Of a DNA stretch of 64,000 bases, positions 1-25,462 are shown piece by piece. A model generated the notes under the pieces. The model was not told the DNA's origin. It ran no database searches and worked only from the letters and a program-made list of their open reading frames with translations. Origin of the DNA: Nitrososphaeraceae archaeon (lineage in GTDB: Archaea > Thermoproteota > Nitrososphaeria > Nitrososphaerales > Nitrososphaeraceae); assembly GCA_040414675.1 (NCBI GenBank), contig JBEDUN010000164.1, positions 3-64,002 of the forward strand, in the 5' to 3' direction. Every line of letters starts with the position of its first letter. Position 1 is the stretch's first letter. Made by a program: the position numbers and the translations under genes.

Positions 1-1
1 T

Positions 2-334
2 GCACACAGATATCTACAGATAGCATTTGCAGAAGATCTCTATCTATACTGTCAAGCAAATAACATAAACTTTGCAGAACTACGAGATGCATTAAATACA
101 AAATGGAATGTTAATATCCTTGAGCCAAGAGATGGAATAGGTGGTCATTGTCTACCAAAAGATACTAAAATGTTCTTGCAATCATCCAAATCCATAAAAA
201 GTAAGATATTGGCATCAGCAATAGAAGTGGATGAGGATTACAGAAGGTATAGACAAACTAGAACTTTAGTTGTGAATAGCGATTCACGGCATTCTTACGA
301 AGAGGGTAAATCAGATCTTTATAAATCGAATTAA
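2..334 (+). CDS. UDP-glucose/GDP-mannose (UDP-sugar 6-) dehydrogenase family protein, C-terminal fragment; the 5' end lies outside the window
   Basis: My own translation of frame 2 (absent from the ORF track because there is no in-window start): ...LEPRDGIGGHCLPKDTKMFLQSSKSIKSKILASAIEVDEDYRRY... GGHCLPKD is the catalytic-Cys signature of this family. TAA stop at 332-334. Confidence 0.75.
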   Translation, partial: AHRYLQIAFAEDLYLYCQANNINFAELRDALNTKWNVNILEPRDGIGGHCLPKDTKMFLQSSKSIKSKILASAIEVDEDYRRYRQTRTLVVNSDSRHSYEEGKSDLYKSN

Positions 335-394
335 GCTCAATATAGTCAAAGTTGCTGACAGCATTCAAATAATCATGGTTATTAGGAAATCTTC

Positions 395-1033
395 ATGAAA
401 TCAAAAGAATCGATTCTTATATTCGGCGCCCATCCGGACGACATAGAAATCGGGATGGGTGGAACCGTAGCAAAGCTTGCTCAGAATAATTCATATGACA
501 TCCACCTTGTAATTGCGACACTGCCGAATTTCGTTAAAACAGATACTAAGGAGGGGCGTCAATCGGAAGCAATTATGTCTGCAAAAGTGATGGGTTGCAA
601 AGACCCAGAACTTCTTGACTTGTCACCAGAAGAAGTAATTTTCAATAGGAGATTAGTTGGAATCATTGACAAGATCATTAAGGAACGACAACCAGACGCA
701 GTATTCACTCAGTGGATTGGTGACTCGCACCAAGATCATCAAGCACTGACGAGAGCGGTCACGGCAGCATGCAGAGACCAGAATAATATTTTCATGTATG
801 AGACCACTATCCCGGGGGGTATTACTGAGTGTGCCTTTAGACCGCAGCTTTATGTTGACATTGCAGGAACTATAGAAATAAAGAAAGAAGCGTTGAATTG
901 TTTCGATTCGCAAAAGATTCGGTGCGGAGAATATTGGATAGATGCAATCATAGGCAGATGCAAGTACAGAGGGTATCAACTGAATTCGAAGTATGCTGAA
1001 GCATTTGAAGTTGTCAGAGTATCCAAGTGGTAA
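395..1033 (+). CDS. PIG-L/LmbE family N-acetylglucosaminyl deacetylase (MshB/BshB-type fold)
   Basis: 212 aa. The GAHPDDIEIGMGGT and HQDH motifs are the zinc-site signatures of PIG-L/LmbE deacetylases. The C-terminal YAEAFE is typical of the family. Confidence 0.85.
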   Translation: MKSKESILIFGAHPDDIEIGMGGTVAKLAQNNSYDIHLVIATLPNFVKTDTKEGRQSEAIMSAKVMGCKDPELLDLSPEEVIFNRRLVGIIDKIIKERQPDAVFTQWIGDSHQDHQALTRAVTAACRDQNNIFMYETTIPGGITECAFRPQLYVDIAGTIEIKKEALNCFDSQKIRCGEYWIDAIIGRCKYRGYQLNSKYAEAFEVVRVSKW

Positions 1034-1073
1034 ATCGTACAATCTAATCTTGATCTAATCTTTCTAAGTTCTC

Positions 1074-2153
1074 TTAAAAATAATTAGGGACGATAGAATT
1101 ACTTTCCTTCACTTTTCTTTGAGATGTAGTGTACAAATACGTATCGTAATCGACGTATACTTCGTTCCAGTATCTCATGCACAATAACCTCTTGTAGTTT
1201 CTTGCGCTACTCTGTTCATTCATGAATAAATTCCTCAAGATTATATCTGGTTCATTGATCCCTGCTACTGCTCGCATTGGACACGTTGCAGAAAATCTTG
1301 GATTTATCTCAAAAACCTTCACCTCGTCTCCCACCTGCATTGCTTGTACGTTGACAGGTCCACGAGCCCCGAGTTTTACAGCAACTTCTTCAGCAGGCTG
1401 GCGTATTTCATTGAAGTTATCAATTATTGCCTTGTAAGTTTGACCATGTTTGATTGTCTTTTGGATGGAAATAGATGATAATACTTTATCACCTTGTTTG
1501 TCAATAGTTACACCAGTTGTGTACTCGGTGCCATTTCCACCAATGTATTCCTGAAGCATAGGTTTCCATCCAGCTACTTCAATTTTCGAAATGTTATACT
1601 CTAGCTCGTTTTCATCCTTAACCACTGCAAAATATAGAGAACCATATCCTTCTCTCGGTTTCACCACGAGTGGAAAACTATAGCGAGAAATGAACTCGTA
1701 CTTGTCGTCTGGCAGGCATGATTCTGCCCTCGAAAAGTTATTACTTGTCAAGAATTCATAAGTTTTCCATTTGTCTCTGGCAAGTTCTAACACGGTCAAA
1801 GGATTTGAAATGATTTTTGCATTAGTCTCAGCTTCTATTCTGCTTTGGACTTTACCGAGAACCAACAGCTCTTCATCGGAGCCTACAAAAATTGCATTAA
1901 TGTCATTTTTTCTAGATATAGAAATTATATTATCAATATAATCTGGTGAGGATGAAGCTGGCACCAAGAATCCAATGCCGTTGCATCTATACAATCCCGC
2001 TGCTTGAGTATTCGCATCTGCAGCAAATATCCTATAAGTAATTGAATCTTCATTTGAATAAAGATTTGCCCAATTTAAGCATTTTATAATTCCTTCTCCT
2101 ATAATACCACCAGCTGCAGTAACAAGCACATTAAGCTGAATTGTATTGCTCAT
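1074..2153 (-). CDS. ATP-grasp ligase (CarB-like / PylC-like family), substrate unknown
   Basis: 359 aa. N-terminal VLVTAAGGIIG (Rossmann-like), VVKPREGYGS and FEINPRFSAT motifs are typical of ATP-grasp enzymes. Confidence 0.75.
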   Translation of the reverse strand: MSNTIQLNVLVTAAGGIIGEGIIKCLNWANLYSNEDSITYRIFAADANTQAAGLYRCNGIGFLVPASSSPDYIDNIISISRKNDINAIFVGSDEELLVLGKVQSRIEAETNAKIISNPLTVLELARDKWKTYEFLTSNNFSRAESCLPDDKYEFISRYSFPLVVKPREGYGSLYFAVVKDENELEYNISKIEVAGWKPMLQEYIGGNGTEYTTGVTIDKQGDKVLSSISIQKTIKHGQTYKAIIDNFNEIRQPAEEVAVKLGARGPVNVQAMQVGDEVKVFEINPRFSATCPMRAVAGINEPDIILRNLFMNEQSSARNYKRLLCMRYWNEVYVDYDTYLYTTSQRKVKESNSIVPNYF

Positions 2154-2198
2154 TATCCAATCGAATTTCAGTTATAGCATATTATTTTACTGATTTAT

Positions 2199-3899
2199 CT
2201 ACATAATCAAAGAGATTGGCGTAGCTAGATGATCATTAGTTATAAGACCATCTCTCCATTGAGCCTCTACGCCACACATGCCGAAGTTTACCGCATAGTC
2301 AATCATGCAAGGTTTCAAATTGATCGCCGACCTTGCTTTATTAGCAGTTTTAATAGTACGACGAAGTGTTCTCTGAGATTCCTTCAATGGAAATACCTTA
2401 TTTAAAATGTCATTTATAGATTGTCCAGACCTAATTCTCCTTGAACGTTCATTAATCAATGGGACTATCCGTTCAGCAAATCCAGAGTCCATTTCTTTCA
2501 ATCTATTCAGATAGGATTCTAGTTCAATTTCATTATTTACTCTTATATAGTTGAGTGCTTCTGATTGACCAATACCTGTATAGACATCAACTGAGGGCCA
2601 AACAGTGGTTAAAGGCATAGTGACATTCAGCTGCTTGAATGCCAGGCTGCTTACCAGCATGTAACCAAGACTTCCACCTGTTCCAGAAGCATAGCATTCA
2701 ATCCCGAGTTCCCTGGCAAGTAGTAATAAAATTGGAATAGCCCTAGGAGATATAGCATGTATCTTGTCGCCTGACAAATCAATATTACTCACTGAGCCAA
2801 TTTCAATTCTAAGATCATTTTTGCACGCTATACATTTTCCTGCTAGATATAGGTGCTGTGTCTTGGTTTCAACCAATTTGGCAGATCCCTTACTTCCACA
2901 TTTACAATGGAGCCATACCGGGGCATTAAGATAAGAGCTCGAACTAACACCAGTGTTGATTCCTTGGCTGGCAAAAATTCCCTCACTTTCATTTAGGGCT
3001 GCGGCATATTTTTTATAATTGGATATCAGGAATTTGAACCCGTCTTCGAAAACTTCTGGTATGTCAGATAATCGAACGAAAACTGTATCATACCCCCAAA
3101 TCTTATTTACAAGACGAGAAATTATAAATGAATTAAAATCTGCATAGGATTTACATCTTGAATAGGACTCTAGAACTTCATCCCAAAAATCGTCAAAATT
3201 CTTTAATAGCTGATATTTATTTTCTCTCTTAAACAAAGATGAATTCGCATTTCTGAGCCAATAAGATACTTGCTTACGCCAAAATTCTATCAAGGAACCT
3301 CTTGGAGCATTCATATTGTGCATCAATCGCCACCTATCGTGGGCTCTAATGGGAAACCTGAGCTCAAGAATACCATTCGCATTACGTACACTAGGCAGCT
3401 GAGCGTGTCGTATCCAAAACTCGTCCATGAAATCATGGTCGACTATTAGAAAGAGATTTACAAATTTTTTACTGCTATCTCTACATTCAGCTATCGATTT
3501 AAGGGATTGCAGCAGAATTATTTTCTTGTACACTCCAGCGAAAGCAAAGAGATTAGGCTGATGGATTGAAACCAATACTTCGGTCGAAGGCTTTTGTAAA
3601 GCTGCAAGAGATTCGTTGATTATGGAGTTGTTAGTGCCTGCCTGATGATGAAAATTGTCTATATACTTAACGAGCCTTGCTCTATTTGACATAATATTTT
3701 CAGCCATCATCGAGGATTGGTTTGTTCGAGAAAGAAGTTTATCAACGGCCTCGGAAAGGCTTTCAGGAAAAGAGGAGATGTAATCAGCTATTACCTGATT
3801 TCCGACTGTCCCAAATTTCGAAAATAGAGATCTGACGCTATGTCGTTGCCCTATTTCCGATGCAGCCATGTAATTGTTAACTAACATTAGAAATCCCAA
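2199..3899 (-). CDS. Divergent BshC-like protein (putative amide ligase) with an inserted Cys4 zinc-ribbon
   Basis: 566 aa. LQKPSTEVLVSIHQPNLFAFAGVYKKI...FLIVDHDFMDE matches, in order and spacing, the BshC pattern ...PSS..VVGGQQAGLLTGPLYTIHK...FWVAGEDHD as I recall it. A later CYASGTGGSLGYM resembles FIAGPGEINYW. CxC-N21-CxxC at residues 332-359. The ORF itself is solid; the family assignment is from memory only. Confidence 0.5.
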   Translation of the reverse strand: MGFLMLVNNYMAASEIGQRHSVRSLFSKFGTVGNQVIADYISSFPESLSEAVDKLLSRTNQSSMMAENIMSNRARLVKYIDNFHHQAGTNNSIINESLAALQKPSTEVLVSIHQPNLFAFAGVYKKIILLQSLKSIAECRDSSKKFVNLFLIVDHDFMDEFWIRHAQLPSVRNANGILELRFPIRAHDRWRLMHNMNAPRGSLIEFWRKQVSYWLRNANSSLFKRENKYQLLKNFDDFWDEVLESYSRCKSYADFNSFIISRLVNKIWGYDTVFVRLSDIPEVFEDGFKFLISNYKKYAAALNESEGIFASQGINTGVSSSSYLNAPVWLHCKCGSKGSAKLVETKTQHLYLAGKCIACKNDLRIEIGSVSNIDLSGDKIHAISPRAIPILLLLARELGIECYASGTGGSLGYMLVSSLAFKQLNVTMPLTTVWPSVDVYTGIGQSEALNYIRVNNEIELESYLNRLKEMDSGFAERIVPLINERSRRIRSGQSINDILNKVFPLKESQRTLRRTIKTANKARSAINLKPCMIDYAVNFGMCGVEAQWRDGLITNDHLATPISLIM

Positions 3900-4135
3900 C
3901 CATTATATAAATTTCCGTCCAAACGTTTGCAGTCGTCAACTATTTACTAGACGATTCTGAAAGCCAACTAATTTAAGGAGTTTTAATCAATATCATAGTA
4001 CAGAATTTCCTAAGATTATCACCTAAAGACTAGACGAAATAATATAATGGTAAATTGATTAAGAAAATTGTAAGATAAAACACTTCTATGTTCTCGGAAC
4101 AGTTGATTTACATAGCATAAAGTCTTTTTGAATTC

Positions 4136-4759
4136 TTACGGTAATTCTGCAGCAGCTATAAGGTCATTAATATCGTCAAAAGATCCTACAGATCCGAGAC
4201 TATGAGCATCGCTTCCCAAGTGGAATCTTACTCCCTTAGTCTTAAATGCAGTTATCCAATCCAACGGTGGTCTGCGGTACTTGGAATTAAGCTCGACCAC
4301 TTTTCGATTCTGCACTATTTCCTCTGCAATCAGACCAATTTCAGATTCGCTGACCTTCATACCGGGCTCTGGAGCTAGATGACCAATTACATCAACTGTC
4401 GGATCTCTGATAACTGTCCTTAGAGCATTTATCCAGATCTGTTTATTTCCAAAAACAGAATGAAAGCTCGCTATCACAAAATATTTGGTACGATATTCAC
4501 TCGGACAATCAATATCACCATTTTGGAGAATTTTTGCCTCGAATCCGGTTAGAATATCTAAAGAGGAGACTTTGGCACACATGTGTATTTCCTCCAGGTA
4601 TTTTGGGATCCAATCAGATGTTTTCCTGACATGTTCTGTGAATGCTATCTTCTTCAGTCCTTTACTTCTTGCAATTTGAATTACATTGTTTATAGTTAAA
4701 TCCGGATCAGAATGATCATTGTATGTCGAATGAATATGATAATCTGCTAGTTTGTCCAT
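4136..4759 (-). CDS. PHP-domain phosphoesterase (histidinol-phosphatase-like family)
   Basis: 207 aa. DYHIHSTYNDHS, AFTEH, ASFH, IGHL and GSDAH are the metal-binding His/Asp motifs of PHP phosphoesterases. Confidence 0.75.
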   Translation of the reverse strand: MDKLADYHIHSTYNDHSDPDLTINNVIQIARSKGLKKIAFTEHVRKTSDWIPKYLEEIHMCAKVSSLDILTGFEAKILQNGDIDCPSEYRTKYFVIASFHSVFGNKQIWINALRTVIRDPTVDVIGHLAPEPGMKVSESEIGLIAEEIVQNRKVVELNSKYRRPPLDWITAFKTKGVRFHLGSDAHSLGSVGSFDDINDLIAAAELP

Positions 4760-4876
4760 AGTGATATATTCTGCCTCTTGAACTGGTGTAATTGATAGCT
4801 GATTGTTAAATCAACCTGTTATATATATAAATATTTATTACATCGATCAATATACAATACTTCTTGGTAATGTCCG

Positions 4877-5878
4877 TTGGCTAGACCTGAAATTTCTGTA
4901 GTTCTTGTTCCAGGCGCAGCCGCACCATCGGGCATAAATGCAATCAAGTCTTTGAGAATGGGTGGATATAAAGGCAAGATTGTTGCGACAGATTCAAGCT
5001 ATCTTTCAGCTGGGTTTTTTATGTCCGATTTTAACGAGGTAATTCCAGAAGCTGATGATAAATCATTCCTTCAGAGGTTGTTGGAAATAATTAAAGGACA
5101 TAAGGTTCAAGTTCTTCTGCCCACGTCGGGCTATGATATATACCCTTACAGTGAGCATCGAAAATTGCTCCTAGATATGGGAGTACACGCAATAGTCAGC
5201 GACAGAAAGAGCCTTGAAATTTGTCGTGACAAGATGCAGACTTATCACTTTTTGCGGAATAATTATTCATTGCCTTATACTACGGATAATGCTAATAAAA
5301 TCAACCAATTCCCAATCATCGCCAAGCCAAGATTTGGAAAAGGTAGTCGTGGTATTATTAGGATAGACGATGAATCTGAGCTAAAATATATTTCATCAAA
5401 AATGGATGATTTAATCTATCAAGAGTTTCTTCCCGGAACAGAATACACGATTGATGTACTTTCTGATCTGAATGAGAAAGCTATGATTGCCGTGCCGCGG
5501 ATTAGAATTCAGACAAAGGCTGGAATCTCGACGAAAGGTAAAATTGTACGAGATCCTAAACTCGAAGACCAGTGTATGGAAATTGCCAATCGGATAAGGA
5601 TAAGAGGCCCTTGTTGTATTCAAATGAAAGAATCTGATGACGGCAGTCTGAAGCTTGTCGAAGTAAATCCTAGGATGGGAGGCGGCACAATTTTCGCAAC
5701 TTTAGCCGGTGTAAACTTCCCATCACTGTTGTTAGAACTCGTCGAAAATAAGAAAGTAGTTCTACCCAAGATAGATGAGGTTACGATTGTAAGGTATTTT
5801 GAGGAAATTGTAATTAGAAATGAGGAACACAAGAATATTGAAGCTGGTATTATGCCCAAACAAAATTATTTTGGGTAA
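4877..5878 (+). CDS. ATP-grasp ligase (CarB-like family), paralogous in type to 1074-2153
   Basis: 333 aa, TTG start. IIAKPRFGKGSRGI and VEVNPRMGGG motifs; domain order as in ATP-grasp enzymes. Confidence 0.75.
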   Translation: MARPEISVVLVPGAAAPSGINAIKSLRMGGYKGKIVATDSSYLSAGFFMSDFNEVIPEADDKSFLQRLLEIIKGHKVQVLLPTSGYDIYPYSEHRKLLLDMGVHAIVSDRKSLEICRDKMQTYHFLRNNYSLPYTTDNANKINQFPIIAKPRFGKGSRGIIRIDDESELKYISSKMDDLIYQEFLPGTEYTIDVLSDLNEKAMIAVPRIRIQTKAGISTKGKIVRDPKLEDQCMEIANRIRIRGPCCIQMKESDDGSLKLVEVNPRMGGGTIFATLAGVNFPSLLLELVENKKVVLPKIDEVTIVRYFEEIVIRNEEHKNIEAGIMPKQNYFG

Positions 5879-6164
5879 CTTCATTCCTTTTTACAATCCT
5901 GAAATTGTCCTCTAACGATCTTTTTAACTTACTATTCTGTTACTCCACCCCTTCCGGTATGATAACTGTCGAGAAATAGTTCACAGAATCTGTAGACCCT
6001 GATTTAACCTGAGTTATTCATATGATTAAATTTCCTAAATGCTGCCTTGCATTCTGTTGTTATATATGAGCGAAAAACTCAGAAAACACTTGTCCACAAT
6101 TCCTGAACATGCAGGTAGTTATAATCTGTTACTAGGAGGACAAAAAGCCACGACAGTTATATCT

Positions 6165-6190
6165 TACACATTGGTTTTTTCCAATGTGTA
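6165..6190. other. Perfect 10-bp stem / T6 loop hairpin followed by a T-rich tract
   Basis: TACACATTGG (6165-6174), tttttt, CCAATGTGTA (6181-6190), then GATTTTGTTG. Lies in a 1-kb non-coding spacer. Confidence 0.3.
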
Positions 6191-6438
6191 GATTTTGTTG
6201 TCTTCAATTGGCAGAACCTACGATAGGTGTGTGAACCACAATGTGGCCCAATGCAAAGACTACTCGAGCTTGTTTTGGAGTCTGTATCATCTACAAAAGA
6301 TGGCCAGACCATTGATCACTAGTTCAAATGTTTGCGAAGTAGTTTTGAGTGATAGCGACCAGAGCCTCAGCCTGTAAACATAAGTCTGTCTCTATCTCAA
6401 CCATGTGAATCTAGAGCCGGACGAATTATTAAAAACTC

Positions 6439-6668
6439 TGCTCTAGAGTCGCCGAAGCTTCGGAGATCTCTCGACTCTTCTTTCATTTGTTATTCGTTTA
6501 TTTTCTGATTTATCTGATTCGGTAATGTATTATAGAAAGCAGGAACGCGGAATGCAATAAATAAATCTTTTTTTCAAATCCAGAAGAATAAGATTCTTCG
6601 GAAAGAATAGCATGATAATGCTATGTAACGTCGAAAACCAGTTCAGCAGTTTACCTTGCTCTAGAGTC
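6439..6668. repeat. 12-nt direct repeat TGCTCTAGAGTC (6439-6450 and 6657-6668) bracketing about 200 nt with three perfect hairpins
   Basis: Read directly. Hairpins: AGAGTCG/CGACTCT (6445-6451 / 6472-6478) enclosing the palindrome CCGAAGCTTCGG (6452-6463); GAAGAAT-aag-ATTCTTC (6583-6599); ATAGCAT-gata-ATGCTAT (6607-6624). T7 run at about 6568-6574. Confidence 0.4.
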
Positions 6669-6881
6669 ATGAACAAACCTAGTTCCAGCAAACGATGCGA
6701 TCGAATGATGTTCACACTTAAAGTTTGAGGTGTATGCATGTTAAACCAAATGTTTGTAGATTGTAGCTGCATGATAAAACAATTGAATCCATGCTACTAG
6801 GCATCTTAGATGATTTCTGAGCGAGATTATTAGGTCTATAATTATTGAAGACTATGTATATGAGGAAAATGGAATAACCTT

Positions 6882-7700
6882 GTGCTGCCATTGGACCAAT
6901 CAGTAGGATGGCTTTCAATAATGATTGCTCTAACGGTTTTTGCATATAGGATTAATGCAATCGATGCTTACGGCGTCATTGCGGCAGTACCAGTAGGATT
7001 CATAACGTTAATTTTCGGGGGTGTCACGTGGTTTTTGGCATTGCTTTCTTTTTTTCTAATTGCTTCCTATTATACTCGACATAAATTTGAGCAAAAAGAA
7101 TTAGCTGGTTTTTCGGAGAAAAATCGGGGGGCTAGAAGTTGGACCAGTGTATTGGCTAATGGGGGATTGCCGGCTTTTTTTGCCATAATGTATCATTATT
7201 CTGGTAATAATAATTTGTATTTGCTCTTTTTTTCAGGCTCTCTGGCCTTCGCACTAGCTGACACGATCGCAACTGAGGTTGGATTACTGAGTAGATCTGC
7301 ACCCATATCTATCTTATCTGGCAAACCCATTCCAAGGGGCCATTCCGGTGGAGTCACTCTGAGGGGTGAGATGGCAGCGCTTGTAGGGACATTAGTTATT
7401 GGATCTATCTGTGGCTTATTTTTTTCAAATGATGCAGGTCAGTTTGCCATTATCTTAATTGCTTGCATAACATCGGGGATGTTGTCTACGAACCTGGATA
7501 GTGTATTAGGCGAAACTTGGCAATGCAAGTATAAATGTTCTGTGTGCAACAAATACTCTGAAATTAGAATAGTTCATTGTGATGTTATTACAATTCAACA
7601 TAGAGGATTCAGATTCGTAGACAATAATGTGGTGAATGCTATAAGCTCGTTATTCGGTGCCGCAATTTGCTCCATTTTTATTTTGGCTTTTAACACTTAG
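6882..7700 (+). CDS. DUF92/TMEM19-family (COG1836) integral membrane protein
   Basis: 272 aa, multiple TM helices. ALADTIATEVG and NLDSVLGETWQ motifs plus a small Cys-rich knuckle (CKYKCSVCN...HC) before the last helix. Confidence 0.7.
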   Translation: MLPLDQSVGWLSIMIALTVFAYRINAIDAYGVIAAVPVGFITLIFGGVTWFLALLSFFLIASYYTRHKFEQKELAGFSEKNRGARSWTSVLANGGLPAFFAIMYHYSGNNNLYLLFFSGSLAFALADTIATEVGLLSRSAPISILSGKPIPRGHSGGVTLRGEMAALVGTLVIGSICGLFFSNDAGQFAIILIACITSGMLSTNLDSVLGETWQCKYKCSVCNKYSEIRIVHCDVITIQHRGFRFVDNNVVNAISSLFGAAICSIFILAFNT

Positions 7701-7759
7701 GAATTAGCTGGAGCAACCCTTATGACCACTCCGTTCGATCGAATATAGATCGCACAGGC

Positions 7760-8695
7760 TTGTGTTATAACCAAGTTACTAAAATCTGTAGAGGGTGCTC
7801 AGTAATGCTTTTTAATGTATTCTTTGATATCGATCCCGGTAAATTCGTGAATTCTTTTAGAGTAGCAGTAGTACAGATGAAGTCATCACAACATAAGGCA
7901 GAAAATCTTAGTGTTGCCTTGGAATACACATCGTTTGCTGCAAATAAAGATGCGAATGCGGTTTTATTCCCTGAATTCCTTATGGCGTATTCCCCTGAAC
8001 ATCAAGATGCTAAAGAATTAGTTAGTATGGCAGAATCGGTAATCAACGGAAAGTTTGTTACAGCATTGCGAAGAGCAGCTAAAAAAAACAATATTACTAT
8101 TGTTGCGACCATATATGAAAAATCGGAAAAAAACAATCAACGGGTTTATGATACCGCGATAATAATTAATTCCACGGGAAAAATATCTTCAGTATATAGA
8201 AAACTTCATCTATACGATGCTTTGGGATTTAGAGAATCGCTTAAGTTTGTGGCAGGTGATAAAATTAACAAACCAGTTACGCTAGGAACCACAAAAGTAG
8301 GCATCATGATTTGTTATGATATTCGATTTCCTGAAATGTCTAGAATATTAGTAGGAAATGGAGCTAACACATTAGTTGCACCATCTGCTTGGGTCCATGG
8401 GATACTAAAGGAGGAGCATTGGTTGACTATGCTCAAGGCTAGGGCTATCGAGAACGGAGCATTCGTGATCGCTCCAGATCAAGTCGGAAATATCTACAGC
8501 GGACGGAGTCTAGTCGTAGACCCATTCGGTGTGGTTCTTTTGGATATGGGAAATAAGCAAGGTGTAGATATTGTAGATATTGATATGTCCAGAGTTAGGG
8601 GTGTTAGAGAGACTTTACCATTGCTCGAAAATCGTCGAACTGACGTATACATGAGAGATCTAGATATTTTTTGTAAGGATAGCAGTATGAGATAG
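7760..8695 (+). CDS. Carbon-nitrogen hydrolase (nitrilase superfamily)
   Basis: Catalytic E-K-C contexts are present: FPEF, YRKLHLYD, MICYDIRFPE. Family members usually begin near 'VAVVQM', so the true start is probably downstream (for example the Met at 7805). Confidence 0.8.
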   Translation: MCYNQVTKICRGCSVMLFNVFFDIDPGKFVNSFRVAVVQMKSSQHKAENLSVALEYTSFAANKDANAVLFPEFLMAYSPEHQDAKELVSMAESVINGKFVTALRRAAKKNNITIVATIYEKSEKNNQRVYDTAIIINSTGKISSVYRKLHLYDALGFRESLKFVAGDKINKPVTLGTTKVGIMICYDIRFPEMSRILVGNGANTLVAPSAWVHGILKEEHWLTMLKARAIENGAFVIAPDQVGNIYSGRSLVVDPFGVVLLDMGNKQGVDIVDIDMSRVRGVRETLPLLENRRTDVYMRDLDIFCKDSSMR

Positions 8696-8889
8696 CAATG
8701 TATGAACTGATCGAAATGGTTTCAATCTAACGGCCCAGTAGAGAAATAATTGTCATATAAACACAATAAAATAGATCAGCAGTCTATTCGGATTTCGTAT
8801 CTATAACTTCAATTAATGAAGGATCATAAATAACGTGCCTTAATACTGTTGTCTTTAACTTTTTATACCTAAAAGGAAATATTGCGAGT

Positions 8890-10050
8890 ATGACAAATAA
8901 GGTCTGTGTCCTAGGGGCGGGTAGTACCAGATATGGCAAGCTTAACGAGAGTATTATTGAACTGGCCTTGAATGCCTCGAGAGAAGCTATTATTTCTGCA
9001 GGTATCACTCCGAAGGATATCGGCGCCGGATACATATCCAATGTTTTTGGCGCGGCCGACAAACAAGTTCATATTGCACCTGTAATTATGAGCAACCTGG
9101 GAATTCCCTATGTTCCTGGCCTTACTATAGAATCTGCATGTGGTTCTGGATCAGTTATGCTTCGAGAGGCTTTTGCCAACGTCTATGCTGGGTTTTACGA
9201 ATGCGTACTGGCTGTTGGTGTAGAAAAAATTACACATACTGGAACGACCCAAAGTACGACTCTTTTCTCATACTGTTCTGACTTTTTTTATGAGGGTGGT
9301 AATGGCGCTTCTTTTCCAGGCTTATTCGCTTCCATTGCTAGGGCTTATCTTTCGAGCTATGAAGCCACTGAGGAGGATTTGGCAAATGTTGCAGTTAAAA
9401 ACCACGAGAATGGAATGCTCAATCCGAAGGCCCACGTCAAGAGAAGAATAACTGTAGACGAAGTGTTAAAATCTCCTGTCGTTGCTTCACCCTTGAAGCT
9501 ATATGATTGCTGCCCATTTTCAGATGGTGCATCAGCACTTATACTTTGTAGTGAAGATTTTGCGAAATCGGTTGGCCGACCATATGTTGAGATAATTGGT
9601 TCGGGTAGAGGAGCGTCCCCTGCTGCAATACAAGGACGAGAAGACATTACGACTATACCAAGTACAGTCAATGCTGCAAAACAGGCTTACAAAATGGCAG
9701 GTGTTACGCCCAAGGATATTGACTTTGCCGAGGTGCATGATTGCTTTACGATAGCTGAGATAATCGATACTGAGGATCTTGGATTTTTCGAGAAAGGTAA
9801 GGCTGCATCCTTTACTAGGGAGGGAGAGACTAAATTGACCGGAAGAATCCCCATAAATCCTTCTGGCGGATTAAAGTCTAAAGGTCACCCAATAGGTGCT
9901 ACTGGTATCGGACAAGTAGTAGAGGTCTACGAACAGTTTACGGGTAAGGCAGGTCAAAGAACGGTAAAGGATGCAGAAATTGCTCTGACTCACAACTTTG
10001 GTGCGACTGGTGCTAGCGCAGCAGTACATATCTTTAAGAAGGTAAAATAA
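8890..10050 (+). CDS. Archaeal-type thiolase (acetyl-CoA C-acetyltransferase)
   Basis: 386 aa. ESACGSGS (active-site Cys), GHPIGATG and NFGATGAS motifs. Confidence 0.9.
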   Translation: MTNKVCVLGAGSTRYGKLNESIIELALNASREAIISAGITPKDIGAGYISNVFGAADKQVHIAPVIMSNLGIPYVPGLTIESACGSGSVMLREAFANVYAGFYECVLAVGVEKITHTGTTQSTTLFSYCSDFFYEGGNGASFPGLFASIARAYLSSYEATEEDLANVAVKNHENGMLNPKAHVKRRITVDEVLKSPVVASPLKLYDCCPFSDGASALILCSEDFAKSVGRPYVEIIGSGRGASPAAIQGREDITTIPSTVNAAKQAYKMAGVTPKDIDFAEVHDCFTIAEIIDTEDLGFFEKGKAASFTREGETKLTGRIPINPSGGLKSKGHPIGATGIGQVVEVYEQFTGKAGQRTVKDAEIALTHNFGATGASAAVHIFKKVK

Positions 10051-13040: not shown

Positions 13041-13706
13041 ATGGAAATTGATCATTGCTCATTTCCAGAGGATGTGCTTTACGATCCGGATAATTTTGTG
13101 TGGGCGAAGTTTGAAGGTGAAAGATTGGTTCGAGTTGGTATTACTTCTGTTCTTTCCTCATTAGCTGGTAGATTGATCAATGTTTCTCTAAAGAAAATAA
13201 ATTTGAACATCGCAATGGGGAGGAGTCTGGGCACCATAGAAAGCGGTAGATATTTTGGGGTAGTGAGATCTCCTGTTACGGGAAGTATAGTCGAAATTAA
13301 TAATGCAGTAGTGAATAATCCTAAGATAATAAATGAATTTCCTTATACTGATGGGTGGATCTCAGTTATTAAGAACGAAAATCTGAACTCGGAAATCAAA
13401 TATCTCAGTACAATTCAAAGTTGTCGTGATTTCATAAGATCTCAGATACACCGACTGCATACCAGATGCTTTGTGGCATTTCCAGACCACGAAATGTATG
13501 AGATGGGAATAGAATGCTCCTCAACTCTTGCGAAATTAGATGACTTGATGAAGCGAGTTAATATAGGTGACGTAATTCACGTAGTTTCAGATGACGTAAC
13601 CGCCGATCTGGAGATGATGAGATGGTCGGAGCTTCGTTCTCAACCCATACTCGAGATGAGACAAGAGAAGAATCTCTTCCATATCCTAGTAAAAAAGTCC
13701 TCCTGA
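13041..13706 (+). CDS. Fusion protein: GcvH-like domain lacking the lipoyl-lysine, plus a TusA/SirA-like domain
   Basis: The N-terminal half aligns to the glycine-cleavage H pattern (VRVGITS...GTIESGRYFGVVRSPVTGSIVEINNAV..NP..IN..PYTDGW), but ESVK is replaced by ESGR. The C-terminal PDHEMYEMGIECSSTLAKL...GDVIHVVSDD...ILVKK parallels TusA PDHTLDALGLRCPEPVMMV...GETLLIIADD...YLIRKG. Confidence 0.65.
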   Translation: MEIDHCSFPEDVLYDPDNFVWAKFEGERLVRVGITSVLSSLAGRLINVSLKKINLNIAMGRSLGTIESGRYFGVVRSPVTGSIVEINNAVVNNPKIINEFPYTDGWISVIKNENLNSEIKYLSTIQSCRDFIRSQIHRLHTRCFVAFPDHEMYEMGIECSSTLAKLDDLMKRVNIGDVIHVVSDDVTADLEMMRWSELRSQPILEMRQEKNLFHILVKKSS

Positions 13707-22178: not shown

Positions 22179-23804
22179 TCAAAGGTATGACTGGACTAAA
22201 TTACACGTCCTTTCTATGCCAAGATCAAGTACATAGTTGCCGATTCTAGGTCCTTTGTCTGCCCCTACTAATATTCTATATAGTAGGGTAAAGAATTCTT
22301 TGATTCCGATTCCATTTCTTCTGGAAATATCAAAGATCATTGACTGTAGATTTCTAGGAGACTCGTCAAACCCTTCCTTTCCCTTAAAATCTTCTAAGCC
22401 TCGGATTAATTCCATCAATGCTGTTCTATCCCTGATGGTAAGATCTAATTCAGACTTACTATCATTTCTTAGGCCATGGTCATCGGCCCAGTTTGCGGCT
22501 AATCTAATCTTCTTTGTTAGAACTGCCTCCGCCTTAGCAATAATGCCGTACTTTGTCAGTCTTCCATAAACTTTTTCTACCCTTTGATCGTCATCTGAGA
22601 AGAGTAATGCTTGCTGTACTAATAGTCTATATGGAACATGTTTTGTGGGATTGGAAGGCGGTTTTAAGTGATTTATGTATTCATAAATGCCCTTAAGCTT
22701 GGCAAGTTTTGTTTGATTTTCTTCCAAAATTATTCCAAAATATAGATCCTCATAATAATCATACTCATCCATCAAAGAAGGTATATCGTCTAAGGAAACG
22801 TGTCTTGTTCCTGTTACTCGCTTGTATAACAATAACAATAGTGATTCAGGTGTTCCATAACGTAACCACATTTGAGGCGTTAAAACATTGCCCTTTGATT
22901 TGCTAATTTTCTGTCCTATCTTATCGAGAAACATCTCGTATCTAAGATGTAATGGATGGGAGTAGCCTAATACGTCATTGGATACCCAGTCATTTATTCT
23001 CACTGAGTCCATGATATCCTTTCCATAAGCTTCAAACTTGACATTAAATGCTTGCCATCTAGCTGCGAATTCTACTTTCCAAGCTAGCTTGCCATTTCCA
23101 TCATTAATGCTTGATTCACCATAATATCCACATCCCCTCACTATTTGATTTCCAATTCTGGTGTCTGAACATGAATACGAGACCTTCTTCTCCTCAGGGA
23201 TATATCTCTCTGCTTTTGCAACATACAGTCTGCCACAATTTCGACAAATAGGGAAATATGGAAGCGTCTGATTATATTTGTCCTGACCTATCATAGCTTG
23301 AATTCCTACCCCAAGACGTTCACTATTTCGTAGAATAGTATCAATTTGCGCTGACAAAATATTCTTCTTGTATGCTTCAGTACCACTTTGAAATTTGTAA
23401 CGAACTCCAACTCTATCGAGCCCTTCCAGAAGCAAACCGCTCATATGAGCGCCATATGATGTATGACAATCACCAAATGGATCTGAAATCTCTGAAACCG
23501 GCTTCGCGATCTCGTTTTTTAAATATTCAGGTAATCCATGAGGTATCTTCCGCAGACCGTCCATATCATCTGAATAGGTTATAAGCTCACTTTTGAAACC
23601 AAGGCTCTGAAGTGCAAGAGTAACACCATAAGCTCTAACCGCATCGCCCATACTACCTATATGAGGAATACCGGATGCTCCCAAACCACTTTCCACCCGT
23701 ATGAGATCCGTATCTCTACCCAATTTCCGCTCCCTTGATAGAAGATCATGGGCAATCTTATCTATCCAAGTACCTTTGCCGAGGATCTCCCCAATGAATT
23801 TCAT
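22179..23804 (-). CDS. lysK: Lysyl-tRNA synthetase, class I
   Basis: 541 aa. GASGIPHIGSMGD (HIGH-type) and KISKSKGN (KMSKS-type) motifs in the class I LysRS arrangement. Confidence 0.95.
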   Translation of the reverse strand: MKFIGEILGKGTWIDKIAHDLLSRERKLGRDTDLIRVESGLGASGIPHIGSMGDAVRAYGVTLALQSLGFKSELITYSDDMDGLRKIPHGLPEYLKNEIAKPVSEISDPFGDCHTSYGAHMSGLLLEGLDRVGVRYKFQSGTEAYKKNILSAQIDTILRNSERLGVGIQAMIGQDKYNQTLPYFPICRNCGRLYVAKAERYIPEEKKVSYSCSDTRIGNQIVRGCGYYGESSINDGNGKLAWKVEFAARWQAFNVKFEAYGKDIMDSVRINDWVSNDVLGYSHPLHLRYEMFLDKIGQKISKSKGNVLTPQMWLRYGTPESLLLLLYKRVTGTRHVSLDDIPSLMDEYDYYEDLYFGIILEENQTKLAKLKGIYEYINHLKPPSNPTKHVPYRLLVQQALLFSDDDQRVEKVYGRLTKYGIIAKAEAVLTKKIRLAANWADDHGLRNDSKSELDLTIRDRTALMELIRGLEDFKGKEGFDESPRNLQSMIFDISRRNGIGIKEFFTLLYRILVGADKGPRIGNYVLDLGIERTCNLVQSYL

Positions 23805-25462
23805 ACTTGGTTCAGCACCTTAGTGACATAAGGCCCATTTTGATCATAGCCAAACTTTCGATAGTATCTCCTCGTTCCAACTGCGCTGATCACTGACAAT
23901 TTTTTCAGCCCAAATTCATTTTTGACTATGCGTTCAGCTTCGTTTAACATTCCGACCCCCAATCCTTTATGCTGATACTTTCCGGATTCTTTTTTTTGTC
24001 CGATTTCGACTGTCCTGCCGTAGACATGCAATTCTCTAACTATGGCCGCTCCATTCTCATCTGATGTTTTCAAGTATTTTATTACAGGGTTATTGGTATA
24101 ACGCAAGCGCAAGAAACCCAGTATAATTGCGTTATCTTTACTTTCATATGAAAGAAACACCTCGTGACCATTGGATGCATCATAATCCAATCTATTCAAA
24201 ATCATTTCATCCACTTGTAAATTTGAATTCCCATTCTGATGACCGATTTCTCTGCATCTAATACAATTACATCTCAGCCCTGACTTATTCAATTCATTAA
24301 TAGCTAGTTGTCTTAAGTTTCCACGTTTTGGTCCGTCTATGATATCTTTAGATTCTATTTCTCTTTGCACACGCATGATTCTAACCCAAGGAGGAACTAT
24401 TTTTTTTATTTCAGCTAGGACTCTTAGCATATCATCATCACTGTATGCCTTGTATTTGCCGTTTTTATACAAGTTGAACAAGCCAGTGTTCGCTAAGACA
24501 AGTGTCGGGTAGATTTTTACCATATCCGGCTTATAAAATGGGTGATAAAACAAGGTTTTGAAATCGGCAACATCTTTTTCGAAAGTTGTTCCAGGTAATC
24601 CTGGCATCATATGTGCGACGATCTTACAACCAGCATCTCGAGCAACTTTGAATGACTCGATTACTTCTCTAAGAGTATGTCCACGATTAACAATTCGGTA
24701 TACGCTCTCCTGTAATGACTGTACACCAATTTCTACTCTCGTAACACCTAACTCTAGCATTAACTCTATGTGTTTCTGTCTACAATAATCGGGTTTTGTT
24801 TCAATCGTCAATCCCACGCATCTCGATCTGCTAGTTTCGTTATTTTTTTTCGCGTCCATAAGGTTAGTTGATAGACTTTGGCTCCCCTTGTACGTATTCA
24901 AGGCATTAAAACATCCTTTTACGAAATCTCTTTGATAATCCTTAGGCATGAAGGGAAACGTTCCCCCGACTATTACCAATTCTATCTTAGATATATTGTG
25001 GCCGCGTGTCTCCAACTGACATAACTTACTCGTTACCTGCTCAAATGAATCGAATTTTGATCTTTGAGCTATTTTCGAGGATGGTTCAGATCCGGTATAA
25101 CTTAGCGGTGTGTTATGCTCAATTCCGCCCGGACAGTAAATACACCTGCCATGTGGACATTCGTATGGTTTTGGCATCACGGTAACTATGGCAACTCCAG
25201 AGGCGGTTTGAATAGGTCTTACCATAAGGATTTTCCGATAGTTGCTGTCAAAGGGTAAGAATTGGATTATGTTCTCGTTTTTTGGTAGAGACTTCAGATG
25301 AAATGAAGCAGATACCTCGCGCAGAATTTTGAATATTTCAGCTTTGGTCATATCAGATTTTGTCGATAGTATTTCTGCAATTGCATTGCAGGCCTCGAGA
25401 AAAACATTATGCGAGTTTAAATATACTTCTGTAGAATTGTTTGTGGTACACTTTTCTTCCAA
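23801..25462 (-). CDS. elp3: Elp3 homolog (radical SAM plus GNAT; tRNA wobble-uridine modification)
   Basis: 553 aa. CPHGRCIYCPGG radical-SAM cluster motif and a C-terminal GNAT motif (YQHKGLGVGMLNEAE). Confidence 0.95.
   Translation of the reverse strand: MEEKCTTNNSTEVYLNSHNVFLEACNAIAEILSTKSDMTKAEIFKILREVSASFHLKSLPKNENIIQFLPFDSNYRKILMVRPIQTASGVAIVTVMPKPYECPHGRCIYCPGGIEHNTPLSYTGSEPSSKIAQRSKFDSFEQVTSKLCQLETRGHNISKIELVIVGGTFPFMPKDYQRDFVKGCFNALNTYKGSQSLSTNLMDAKKNNETSRSRCVGLTIETKPDYCRQKHIELMLELGVTRVEIGVQSLQESVYRIVNRGHTLREVIESFKVARDAGCKIVAHMMPGLPGTTFEKDVADFKTLFYHPFYKPDMVKIYPTLVLANTGLFNLYKNGKYKAYSDDDMLRVLAEIKKIVPPWVRIMRVQREIESKDIIDGPKRGNLRQLAINELNKSGLRCNCIRCREIGHQNGNSNLQVDEMILNRLDYDASNGHEVFLSYESKDNAIILGFLRLRYTNNPVIKYLKTSDENGAAIVRELHVYGRTVEIGQKKESGKYQHKGLGVGMLNEAERIVKNEFGLKKLSVISAVGTRRYYRKFGYDQNGPYVTKVLNQV

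Follow-up and report, generated by a model that had tools for sequence, protein, structure and literature searches.

Positions 2–5878 of a 64,000-nt stretch of DNA (hereafter the window, meaning this stretch at its full length) from a Nitrososphaeraceae archaeon carry six genes (contig JBEDUN010000164.1 of assembly GCA_040414675.1; base composition of about 37–39% G+C). They encode a dehydrogenase, a PIG-L-family deacetylase, two ATP-grasp ligases (AG1 and AG2), a PHP-family phosphoesterase, and a 562-aa protein that resembles BshC, an enzyme of bacillithiol synthesis (Table 1). These proteins are annotated in databases as hypothetical or generically. A first-pass annotation, made from the sequence alone, had read the cluster as a pathway resembling the synthesis of low-molecular-weight thiols, with the decoration of a uronic-acid-containing glycan as the alternative. 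The comparisons presented below favor the second of these readings.

All six open reading frames (ORFs) of the first-pass annotation were recovered, with the same coordinates and strands, by ORF calling and translation, and no membrane segment is predicted in any of their products. The spacers between them, which had been called short, measure 60, 40, 45, 248, and 117 bp. The 248-bp spacer contains an element resembling the archaeal B recognition element and TATA box (BRE/TATA; ggaaa-tttatata, at about 3915–3904), which is probably an internal promoter, so that at least three transcription units can be proposed. The AT-rich region between the divergent PHP and AG2 genes is presumed to be a bidirectional promoter region. 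The start of the BshC-like gene had been placed at a TTG codon (3899), but ATG 3887 is the most likely start, since it yields a protein of 562 aa, the same length as the database copies, and since the BRE/TATA-like element lies just upstream of it. As only about 20 nt separate this element from ATG 3887, transcription may begin very near, or past, this codon. Translation could alternatively start at the next in-frame ATG (3869).

Table 1. Features of the six-gene cluster (window coordinates in nt).
Feature	Position	Strand	Basis and remarks
Dehydrogenase-like gene, 3' end	2..334	+	110 codons plus stop; PF00984, GGHCLPKD
PIG-L/LmbE-family zinc N-deacetylase, 212 aa	395..1033	+	PF02585, AHPDD and HQDH motifs
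ATP-grasp ligase AG1, 359 aa	1074..2153	-	ATP-grasp_3, ATPgrasp_Ter, PylC-like_N; last gene of the PHP / BshC-like / AG1 unit
BshC-like ligase with predicted class I aminoacyl-tRNA synthetase fold, 562 aa	2199..3887	-	ORF extends to TTG 3899; weak PF10079, fold match
Spacer with BRE/TATA-like element	3888..4135	-	Sequence reading, based only on likeness to the archaeal promoter consensus
PHP-family metal-dependent phosphoesterase, 207 aa	4136..4759	-	PF02811; first gene of the PHP / BshC-like / AG1 unit
AT-rich divergent intergenic region, PHP gene to AG2	4760..4876		Sequence reading
ATP-grasp ligase AG2, 333 aa	4877..5878	+	ATPgrasp_Ter 90.9 bits, ATP-grasp_3; divergent transcription

The BshC-like protein is the member of the cluster whose relationships are the most distant. 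Its sole family match is to PF10079 (BshC), with 24.0 bits for a cut-off of 27, and covers the N-terminal part. No match was obtained among NCBIfam models, and at the sequence level nothing meaningful was retrieved from the PDB, whether the query was the protein itself or a profile of 15 sequences. An AlphaFold (AF2) model was built from an alignment of 15 sequences (pLDDT 76, pTM 0.78) and compared with known structures using Foldseek. The top match was BshC from Bacillus subtilis (4WBD; E 3e-13, TM 0.55/0.57, 13% identity), aligned over the full length (568 columns). A class I lysyl-tRNA synthetase (LysRS) ranked second, followed by weak matches to methionyl- and cysteinyl-tRNA synthetases and to the mycothiol ligase MshC (3c8z and 8hfm, E 0.06–0.13). 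Three motifs are invariant across the family, including members less than 30% identical: HQPN after the first strand, a CxCG...CxxC zinc ribbon, and GG..Y. The protein also carries DHDF and SPRA...GTGG motifs, and family alignments revealed motif patterns common to BshC and to the BshC-like protein. The BshC superfamily is characterized by a Rossmann fold of the class I aminoacyl-tRNA synthetase (aaRS) type and a C-terminal helical domain, and full-length fold similarity together with the conserved motifs places the 562-aa protein within it. The BshC relationship proposed by the first-pass annotation is thus borne out at the level of the fold. As judged from the predicted structure, the protein is a remote homologue within this superfamily, not a BshC orthologue.

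When 1.84 billion representative proteins were searched with a profile of the BshC-like family, only 455 clusters were retrieved. This number was judged too small to take in bacterial BshC, and the family therefore looks separate from BshC proper. Several of its members do pass the PF10079 cut-off (28.6, 38.6, and 32.3 bits for P0144, P0160, and P0171, respectively). The 120 database homologues listed for the 562-aa protein are all annotated as 'hypothetical protein'; the named ones are nearly all from Nitrososphaeraceae, and two of the 120 bear the label of a bacterial metagenome-assembled genome (MAG), namely Candidatus Eisenbacteria and Candidatus Acidoferrum.

The other proteins of the cluster are more readily assigned. 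The deacetylase matches PF02585 with 73.5 bits (E 3e-20), and both of its motifs are intact. Its best NCBIfam match is BshB1 (TIGR04001; 99 bits, below the cut-off of 182.5), ahead of TIGR04000 (43.8 bits, cut-off 195) and of the MshB model TIGR03445 (17.8 bits, cut-off 224), and its PDB neighbours are BcZBP/BshB1 and archaeal diacetylchitobiose deacetylases. AG1 and AG2 are paralogues with 25% identity that share an E-x-NPR motif. AG1 exceeds the cut-off of NF009402, a 'carbamoyl phosphate synthase-like protein' model (299 bits, cut-off 218), and its nearest PDB entry is 2PN1, a protein of unknown function. The PHP protein (PF02811, E 2e-8) is YcdX-like, with 93 bits to PRK08392 and HIH and GSDAH motifs.

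The dehydrogenase had been called a UDP-sugar 6-dehydrogenase, a name that can be kept only in part. The window contains merely the 3' end of the gene, which starts before position 1. This end encodes the central domain of NDP-sugar dehydrogenases (PF00984, E 1e-13) with its catalytic motif, cysteine included, and its best NCBIfam matches are TIGR03026 and UDP-N-acetylmannosamine (UDP-ManNAc) dehydrogenase. Full-length orthologues measure 306–401 aa and comprise PF03721, PF00984, and a variable low-complexity insert. They score nearer to UDP-ManNAc than to UDP-glucose dehydrogenase, below the subfamily cut-off. TIGR03026 gives 134.5 bits for a cut-off of 189.8, and the three-domain architecture of UDP-sugar 6-dehydrogenases is incomplete: the UDP-binding C-terminal domain PF03720 was detected by Pfam neither in the 120 best homologues nor in a full-length orthologue of 381 aa (L008:11529-12674), which has PF03721 and PF00984 only. 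This absence is read from Pfam domain content, an AlphaFold model built from 17 sequences (pLDDT 38) having been left unused. Without a UDP-binding domain, the enzyme may act on a sugar that is not carried on UDP, the substrate probably being a glycoside. Some of the homologues end in an HTH_45 winged-helix domain in place of PF03720, and many have a variable insert rich in Ser, Asn, and Gly.

The conservation of the cluster was analyzed by scanning one genome per GTDB species, which identified 116 relatives of the BshC-like protein, of which 80 were kept. Nearly all of them are labelled Nitrososphaeraceae or Nitrososphaerales, including Nitrososphaera, Nitrosopolaris, and Nitrosocosmicus, and a few have a broader or inconsistent label (Thermoproteota, Nitrosopumilales, Nitrosopumilus). 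ORFs were called in all the relative loci and searched with the window proteins, giving 67 species-level loci, and the frequencies given here refer to loci with enough flanking DNA. AG1 is present in 61 of 62 loci, PHP in 56 of 58, and AG2 in 52 of 53; PIG-L (24/37) and the dehydrogenase (13/24) are less constant. The order of the genes does not vary: AG2 lies on one strand, PHP, BshC-like, and AG1 on the other, and PIG-L and the dehydrogenase converge on them. The core AG2/PHP/BshC-like/AG1 genes are adjacent in >95% of the 67 species-level genomes, down to 37% identity, and can be considered to be conserved as a unit. In Nitrosocosmicus, whose proteins are 37–41% identical to the window protein, the arrangement is complete and the ORFs overlap or abut. 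A neighbour-joining tree places the complete arrangement on both sides of the midpoint root, in Nitrosocosmicus and in the window clade, and it is therefore ancestral. Found in dozens of species-level genomes, down to 37–40% protein identity, the six-gene arrangement is far beyond chance. One MAG has an IS481-type transposase between AG1 and PIG-L (L082:11592-12548), and cluster genes are split into two ORFs in several long-read MAGs (L008, L030, L056), for which frameshifts or assembly errors may be responsible.

The glycosyltransferase expected by the first-pass annotation upstream of position 1 is not found there in L008, which of the relatives with long flanks is the closest (74% identity) and has its genes in the same order. 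On this side, L008 carries the rest of the dehydrogenase gene followed by a divergent gene similar to archaetidylinositol-phosphate (AIP) synthase, an NAD kinase, and a CTP synthase. Where a glycosyltransferase is present, it lies at the opposite end, beyond AG2: in 24 of 45 loci, a GT2 of about 490 aa adjoins AG2 or sits within the cluster. Membrane segments lie near both ends (two N-terminal, at least two C-terminal), a QQIRW motif is present, and the protein scores 120–138 bits against the PgaC/IcaA model TIGR03937 (cut-off 422) and 98–100 bits against the NodC model TIGR04242 (cut-off 550). The window clade has DUF92 and CN-hydrolase genes at this position. Neither a GT2 gene nor a decayed remnant of one was found in the window, the ORF-free gap 5879–6881 included. 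This gap, which separates AG2 from the DUF92 gene over 1 kb, consists of ordinary non-coding DNA that is diverging, with about 70–74% identity to the closest relatives. An Rfam scan of positions 1–9000 returned only a sub-threshold match resembling a C/D-box snoRNA (6454–6532; 22 bits for a threshold of 88, E 0.36). The AIP-synthase-like gene (for instance L008:12893-13489) reaches 151.6 bits with NF040950, for a cut-off of 180. It adjoins the cluster across the family (L008, L003, L050, L059, L076, L082, L083, L035, L047), usually with the NAD kinase beyond it. The PHP protein was considered as the missing archaetidylinositol-phosphate phosphatase, an idea set aside as the main reading, the PHP gene being in operon with the BshC-like gene and not with the AIP synthase.

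The pairing of PIG-L with BshC-like genes extends beyond this cluster. Loci of the genus Nitrososphaera encode a second, divergent PIG-L, whose gene is directly followed by a paralogous BshC-like gene (L038, L040, L042, L043, L048, L051, L058, L075, and L081; e.g. L043:1033-9599). The pair adjoins genes for PelF, which exceeds its cut-off (153 bits for 100), a PelG-like exporter, an epimerase, an AG1-like ATP-grasp, and a conserved but unassigned protein of 219 aa, and from this gene content the locus looks like an archaeal Pel-like exopolysaccharide locus. Its PelF-type GT4 scores 89 bits against BshA, for a cut-off of 273.7. One MAG has both versions of the cluster (L012 and L081).

More distant relatives were sought by scanning metagenomes with an alignment of distant family members, which yielded 401 relatives; 80 were fetched, and 58 of these have at least 3 kb of flanking DNA. 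A PIG-L gene lies within 2.5 kb, usually directly upstream and on the same strand, in 52 of these 58 loci. A GT2 gene occurs in 46, a GFO-type oxidoreductase in 32, a GT4 in 25, and a DegT in 23. PIG-L and BshC-like genes therefore constitute a conserved two-gene module of glycan operons. The gene tables of distant representatives agree, since the BshC-like gene adjoins PIG-L in every locus having flanking genes. Single loci hold GT2, GT4, DegT, GFO/IDH/MocA, epimerase, and DUF354 genes, and further ones encode a FemAB-like protein, a VimE-like protein, a WecA/MraY-type transferase, a sugar-1-phosphate nucleotidyltransferase, and an exosortase-family protein. One of them, L087, brings together a PgaC-like GT2 (196 bits), a PIG-L, an ATP-grasp 35% identical to AG2, a BshC-like protein, a sugar-1-phosphate nucleotidyltransferase, and an unrelated enzyme of the histidine-phosphatase family, and its predicted gene functions mirror the logic of the Nitrososphaeraceae cluster. 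For an archaeal origin of the distant relatives, SAMP2, DUF1616, and HTH_45 genes in the neighbourhood give no more than a hint. In four loci (L084, L089, L090, L154), the pair lies near FemAB-like (VimA-like), VimE-like, and exosortase/archaeosortase-family genes. Such sortase-type neighbours echo the published tie between aminoacylated linking sugars and sortase-type protein anchoring.

What was observed is which genes are present, that they are conserved together, that one product is related in fold to BshC, that PIG-L and BshC-like genes are paired, and that such pairs occur in glycan operons. On this basis, we consider that the cluster has a somewhat better than even chance of building a hexosamine or hexosaminuronate unit decorated with amino acids, as part of a cell-envelope glycoconjugate such as an exopolysaccharide, an oligosaccharide, or a glycan precursor. 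The individual reactions, their order, the amino acids involved, and the end product are our inference. The PIG-L enzyme would strip the N-acetyl group from a residue of the N-acetylglucosamine (GlcNAc) type and free its C2 amine, which the BshC-like ligase would then re-acylate with an amino acid. The short dehydrogenase would oxidize C6 to a carboxylate, probably on a glycoside. AG1 and AG2 would form further amide bonds, either by amidating the uronate or by extending the amino-acid substituent, and the PHP enzyme would take the phosphate off a phosphorylated intermediate or off the amine donor. The succession of deacetylation and ligation of an amino acid to the freed amine, already proposed by the first-pass annotation, is strongly backed by the proximity of PIG-L to distant BshC-like genes.

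Several observations weigh against this reading. The six proteins are predicted to be soluble, so a polymer already exported by its synthase would be out of their reach, and the modification would therefore take place on a precursor, on the nascent chain, or on a lipid of the inner leaflet. The scores of the GT2 fall far short of the PgaC and NodC cut-offs, and in the lineage of the window no glycosyltransferase, flippase, or exporter was found among the ORFs scanned over 64 kb. PIG-L is missing from the cluster in about one third of the genomes. Finally, ATP-grasp and PHP partners are rare outside Nitrososphaeraceae, and their roles are thus proposed by analogy.

Two published bacterial systems offer such analogies, and between them every part of the proposed chemistry is documented in surface glycans. 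In the Wbp/Vim pathway, a deacetylase, an aminoacyl transferase, and an amidotransferase lead to 2-N-seryl-3-N-acetylglucuronamide, and the genes associate with exosortase systems (PMC7468200). The linking sugar of Porphyromonas gingivalis and Tannerella forsythia is a 2-N-seryl/glycyl-3-N-acetyl-glucuronamide/mannuronic acid. As proposed here, an amino acid replaces the 2-N-acetyl group of a uronic-acid amino sugar, with optional amidation of C6, and the distant BshC-like loci carry WbpB-like (GFO) and WbpE-like (DegT) genes. The enzymes differ: PIG-L stands in the place of the CE4 protein VimE, the BshC-like protein in that of the FemAB/GNAT-like VimA, and the ATP-grasps in that of the AsnB-like WbpS. 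None of the VimE (CE4), VimA (FemAB-like), and WbpS (AsnB-like) families is represented among the six window proteins, VimE-like and FemAB-like genes being found only in some distant loci (L084, L089), and the Nitrososphaeraceae cluster is devoid of GFO and DegT. The second system is the glucuronamide of the Campylobacter jejuni HS:2 capsule. There, serinol phosphate or ethanolamine phosphate is joined to glucuronic acid by the ATP-grasp Cj1438C, and this amidation is followed by dephosphorylation by the phosphatase Cj1435 (PMC11800379). An amidoligase of the ATP-grasp type is thus combined with a uronic acid and with a phosphatase acting on the amine-donor phosphate, as it would be here. However, the ATP-grasp Cj1438C is TupA-like and is fused to a GT2, and Cj1435 belongs to the HAD family, whereas the window encodes PylC-N/ATPgrasp_Ter ATP-grasps and a PHP protein. 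Since the window enzymes are not homologous to those of either system, the likeness is a functional parallel, not homology or family membership.

The rival that the first-pass annotation had put forward is a low-molecular-weight thiol, or another soluble glucosamine conjugate, made by a logic similar to that of bacillithiol or mycothiol: a GlcNAc glycoside would be dephosphorylated by PHP, deacetylated by PIG-L, cysteinylated by the BshC-like protein, and extended by the ATP-grasps. In favor of bacillithiol synthesis (BshA, BshB, BshC), the PIG-L protein has its best NCBIfam and PDB neighbours in BshB1/BcZBP, and its partner has its best fold neighbour in BshC, a pairing that implies the freeing of a C2 amine and the attachment of an amino acid on a GlcNAc glycoside. 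The reaction of BshC has itself yet to be reconstituted (PMC5790435). In mycothiol synthesis (MshA, phosphatase, MshB, MshC, MshD), too, a glycoside is handled in turn by a phosphatase, an LmbE-family deacetylase, and a class-I-aaRS-like ligase, and the phosphatase step is still unassigned (PMC7278568). The solubility of all six proteins and the lack of an exporter in the window also speak for this rival. Nevertheless, we regard this pathway as quite unlikely. The scanned window ORFs include no equivalent of BshA or MshA, nor was an MshD seen, and the sole GT4, that of the paralogous cluster, passes the PelF cut-off instead. BshB1, BshC, MshB, and MshC models all remain below threshold, MshC is a weak fold neighbour (E ~0.06), and the 562-aa family has its own HQPN motif and zinc ribbon. 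The glycosyltransferase associated with the cluster is a GT2 of the synthase type with several membrane segments, and the operons of relatives contain several GT2, GT4, DegT, and GFO genes. Known thiol pathways have no place for a dehydrogenase or for two extra ligases, and neither these nor a PHP protein have a counterpart in the bacillithiol set. Bacillithiol, moreover, has never been detected in archaea (PMC7278568). The first-pass reading is therefore retained for co-conservation, for the link to BshC, and for the logic of deacetylation and ligation, and is abandoned as to the thiol; its alternative of a decorated uronic-acid-containing glycan fits better with the type of GT2 and with the polysaccharide operons.

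Glycans other than a polymer, and the absence of any shared function, were also considered. GT2 could add GlcNAc to a membrane lipid, which PIG-L would de-N-acetylate and the ligases would decorate with amino acids, thereby tailoring a glycolipid head group such as a glucosaminyl-archaetidylinositol or one resembling glycosylphosphatidylinositol. QxxRW-type GT2 enzymes include non-processive lipid glycosyltransferases, and glucosaminyl-hopanoids are made by HpnI (GT2) and HpnK (PIG-L family). PIG-L is also the family of the GlcNAc-phosphatidylinositol de-N-acetylase, soluble cytoplasmic enzymes can reach the inner leaflet, and the AIP-synthase-like gene stays by the dehydrogenase or the cluster from Nitrosocosmicus to the window clade, even in loci that have neither PIG-L nor the dehydrogenase (L035, L047). 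This proximity may be plain synteny, though, as the conserved block also holds the NAD kinase and CTP synthase genes; polymer synthases are the best models for the GT2, and the distant relatives lie in polysaccharide operons with several glycosyltransferases, where CDP-alcohol transferases were not among the families searched. On balance, tailoring of a glycolipid is unlikely.

A secreted oligosaccharide analogous to Nod factors is very unlikely. In this scheme, GT2 would make short chito-oligosaccharides in the cytoplasm, PIG-L would deacetylate their non-reducing end as NodB does, and the BshC-like protein would N-acylate it with an amino acid where NodA uses a fatty acid. NodB and NodA do set a precedent for deacetylation followed by N-acylation, the GT2 scores about 100 bits with NodC and has a NodC-like membrane topology, the PIG-L protein resembles archaeal diacetylchitobiose deacetylases, and cytoplasmic tailoring enzymes would suit a cytoplasmic oligosaccharide. 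But PgaC outscores NodC, both being well under their cut-offs, no NodIJ-type ABC exporter was seen in the cluster, and the dehydrogenase, PHP, and second ligase are left without a role. Synthase-dependent polymers of N-acetylhexosamine (HexNAc), such as poly-N-acetylglucosamine (PgaC/IcaA) and Pel (PelF/PelG), are a further known point of comparison: here too, a de-N-acetylase is associated with a PgaC/NodC-like multi-membrane-segment GT2 or, in the paralogous cluster, with PelF/PelG. What sets the cluster apart from the polymer and Nod systems is a cytoplasmic PIG-L in place of an extracellular CE4 deacetylase, re-acylation by what would be an ATP-dependent aaRS-like ligase, and a GT2 that scores far below the equivalog cut-offs and is absent from the window. 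That the six genes are unrelated neighbours, held together by chance or general synteny, is extremely unlikely. The housekeeping genes for threonyl-tRNA synthetase, NAD kinase, and AIP synthase do persist near the cluster in many genomes, and the six genes are spread over both strands in three or more transcription units. Against this stand the near-universal adjacency of the four core genes, the overlapping or abutting ORFs of Nitrosocosmicus, and the independent recurrence, in very distant lineages, of the PIG-L/BshC-like pair and of the GT2/ATP-grasp/phosphatase combination. With conservation of this extent, chance adjacency can be ruled out.

The rest of the window carries housekeeping genes. 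Among them is a class I LysRS (22179–23804), the enzyme that ranks second among the fold neighbours of the BshC-like model, which overlaps by 4 nt an Elp3-like radical-SAM gene (23801–25462). An ORF of 221 aa (13041–13706) carries a glycine-cleavage H-protein domain and, after it, a sub-threshold TusA-like sulfurtransferase domain (26.1 bits, cut-off 28.6). Another, of 1164 aa (39376–42870, - strand), has no Pfam domain apart from a weak C-terminal TMEM154-like stretch and may encode a large surface protein.

No characterised archaeal pathway matches the cluster of AG2, PHP, BshC-like, AG1, PIG-L, and dehydrogenase genes. This agrees with the first-pass annotation, which knew of none, and extends to the agl/N-glycosylation clusters, whose models remain far below their cut-offs (AglM 16–27 bits for 670, AglG ~34 for 440, AglJ 25 for 325). 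The logic of deacetylation followed by aminoacylation is already known, but neither this enzyme family nor this combination of genes was described in the literature searched. A distinct branch of the BshC superfamily, marked by HQPN and a zinc ribbon, is paired with PIG-L in glycan operons of hundreds of uncultured lineages, and points to a new enzymatic route for the N-aminoacylation of amino sugars, distinct from that of the FemAB-like VimA. A BshC homologue with tightly linked partners, PHP upstream and an ATP-grasp downstream, also provides candidates for the missing activated substrate or helper protein of BshC. Archaeal 'BshC' database matches have been read as hints of bacillithiol synthesis (PMC7278568). 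Supposing that they are the same set of proteins as the HQPN family, they would be poor evidence for bacillithiol.

Nitrososphaeraceae are the dominant ammonia oxidizers in many soils, and the chemistry of their envelope affects ammonium capture, aggregation, and biofilm formation. To our knowledge, no surface glycan pathway has been characterized in this family. A thick, S-layer-free envelope has been reported for Nitrosocosmicus (PMC11559005), the genus with the most complete cluster. A bolder proposal, which we hold to be quite improbable, is that Nitrososphaeraceae make a hitherto unrecognized peptide-bearing amino-sugar polymer, in which a synthase-made backbone of HexNAc or hexosaminuronate would receive short, amide-linked amino-acid side chains from one aaRS-like and two ATP-grasp ligases. 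If true, this polymer would represent a third independent solution to wall material of the peptidoglycan or teichuronopeptide type, and it could be the very envelope reported for Nitrosocosmicus.

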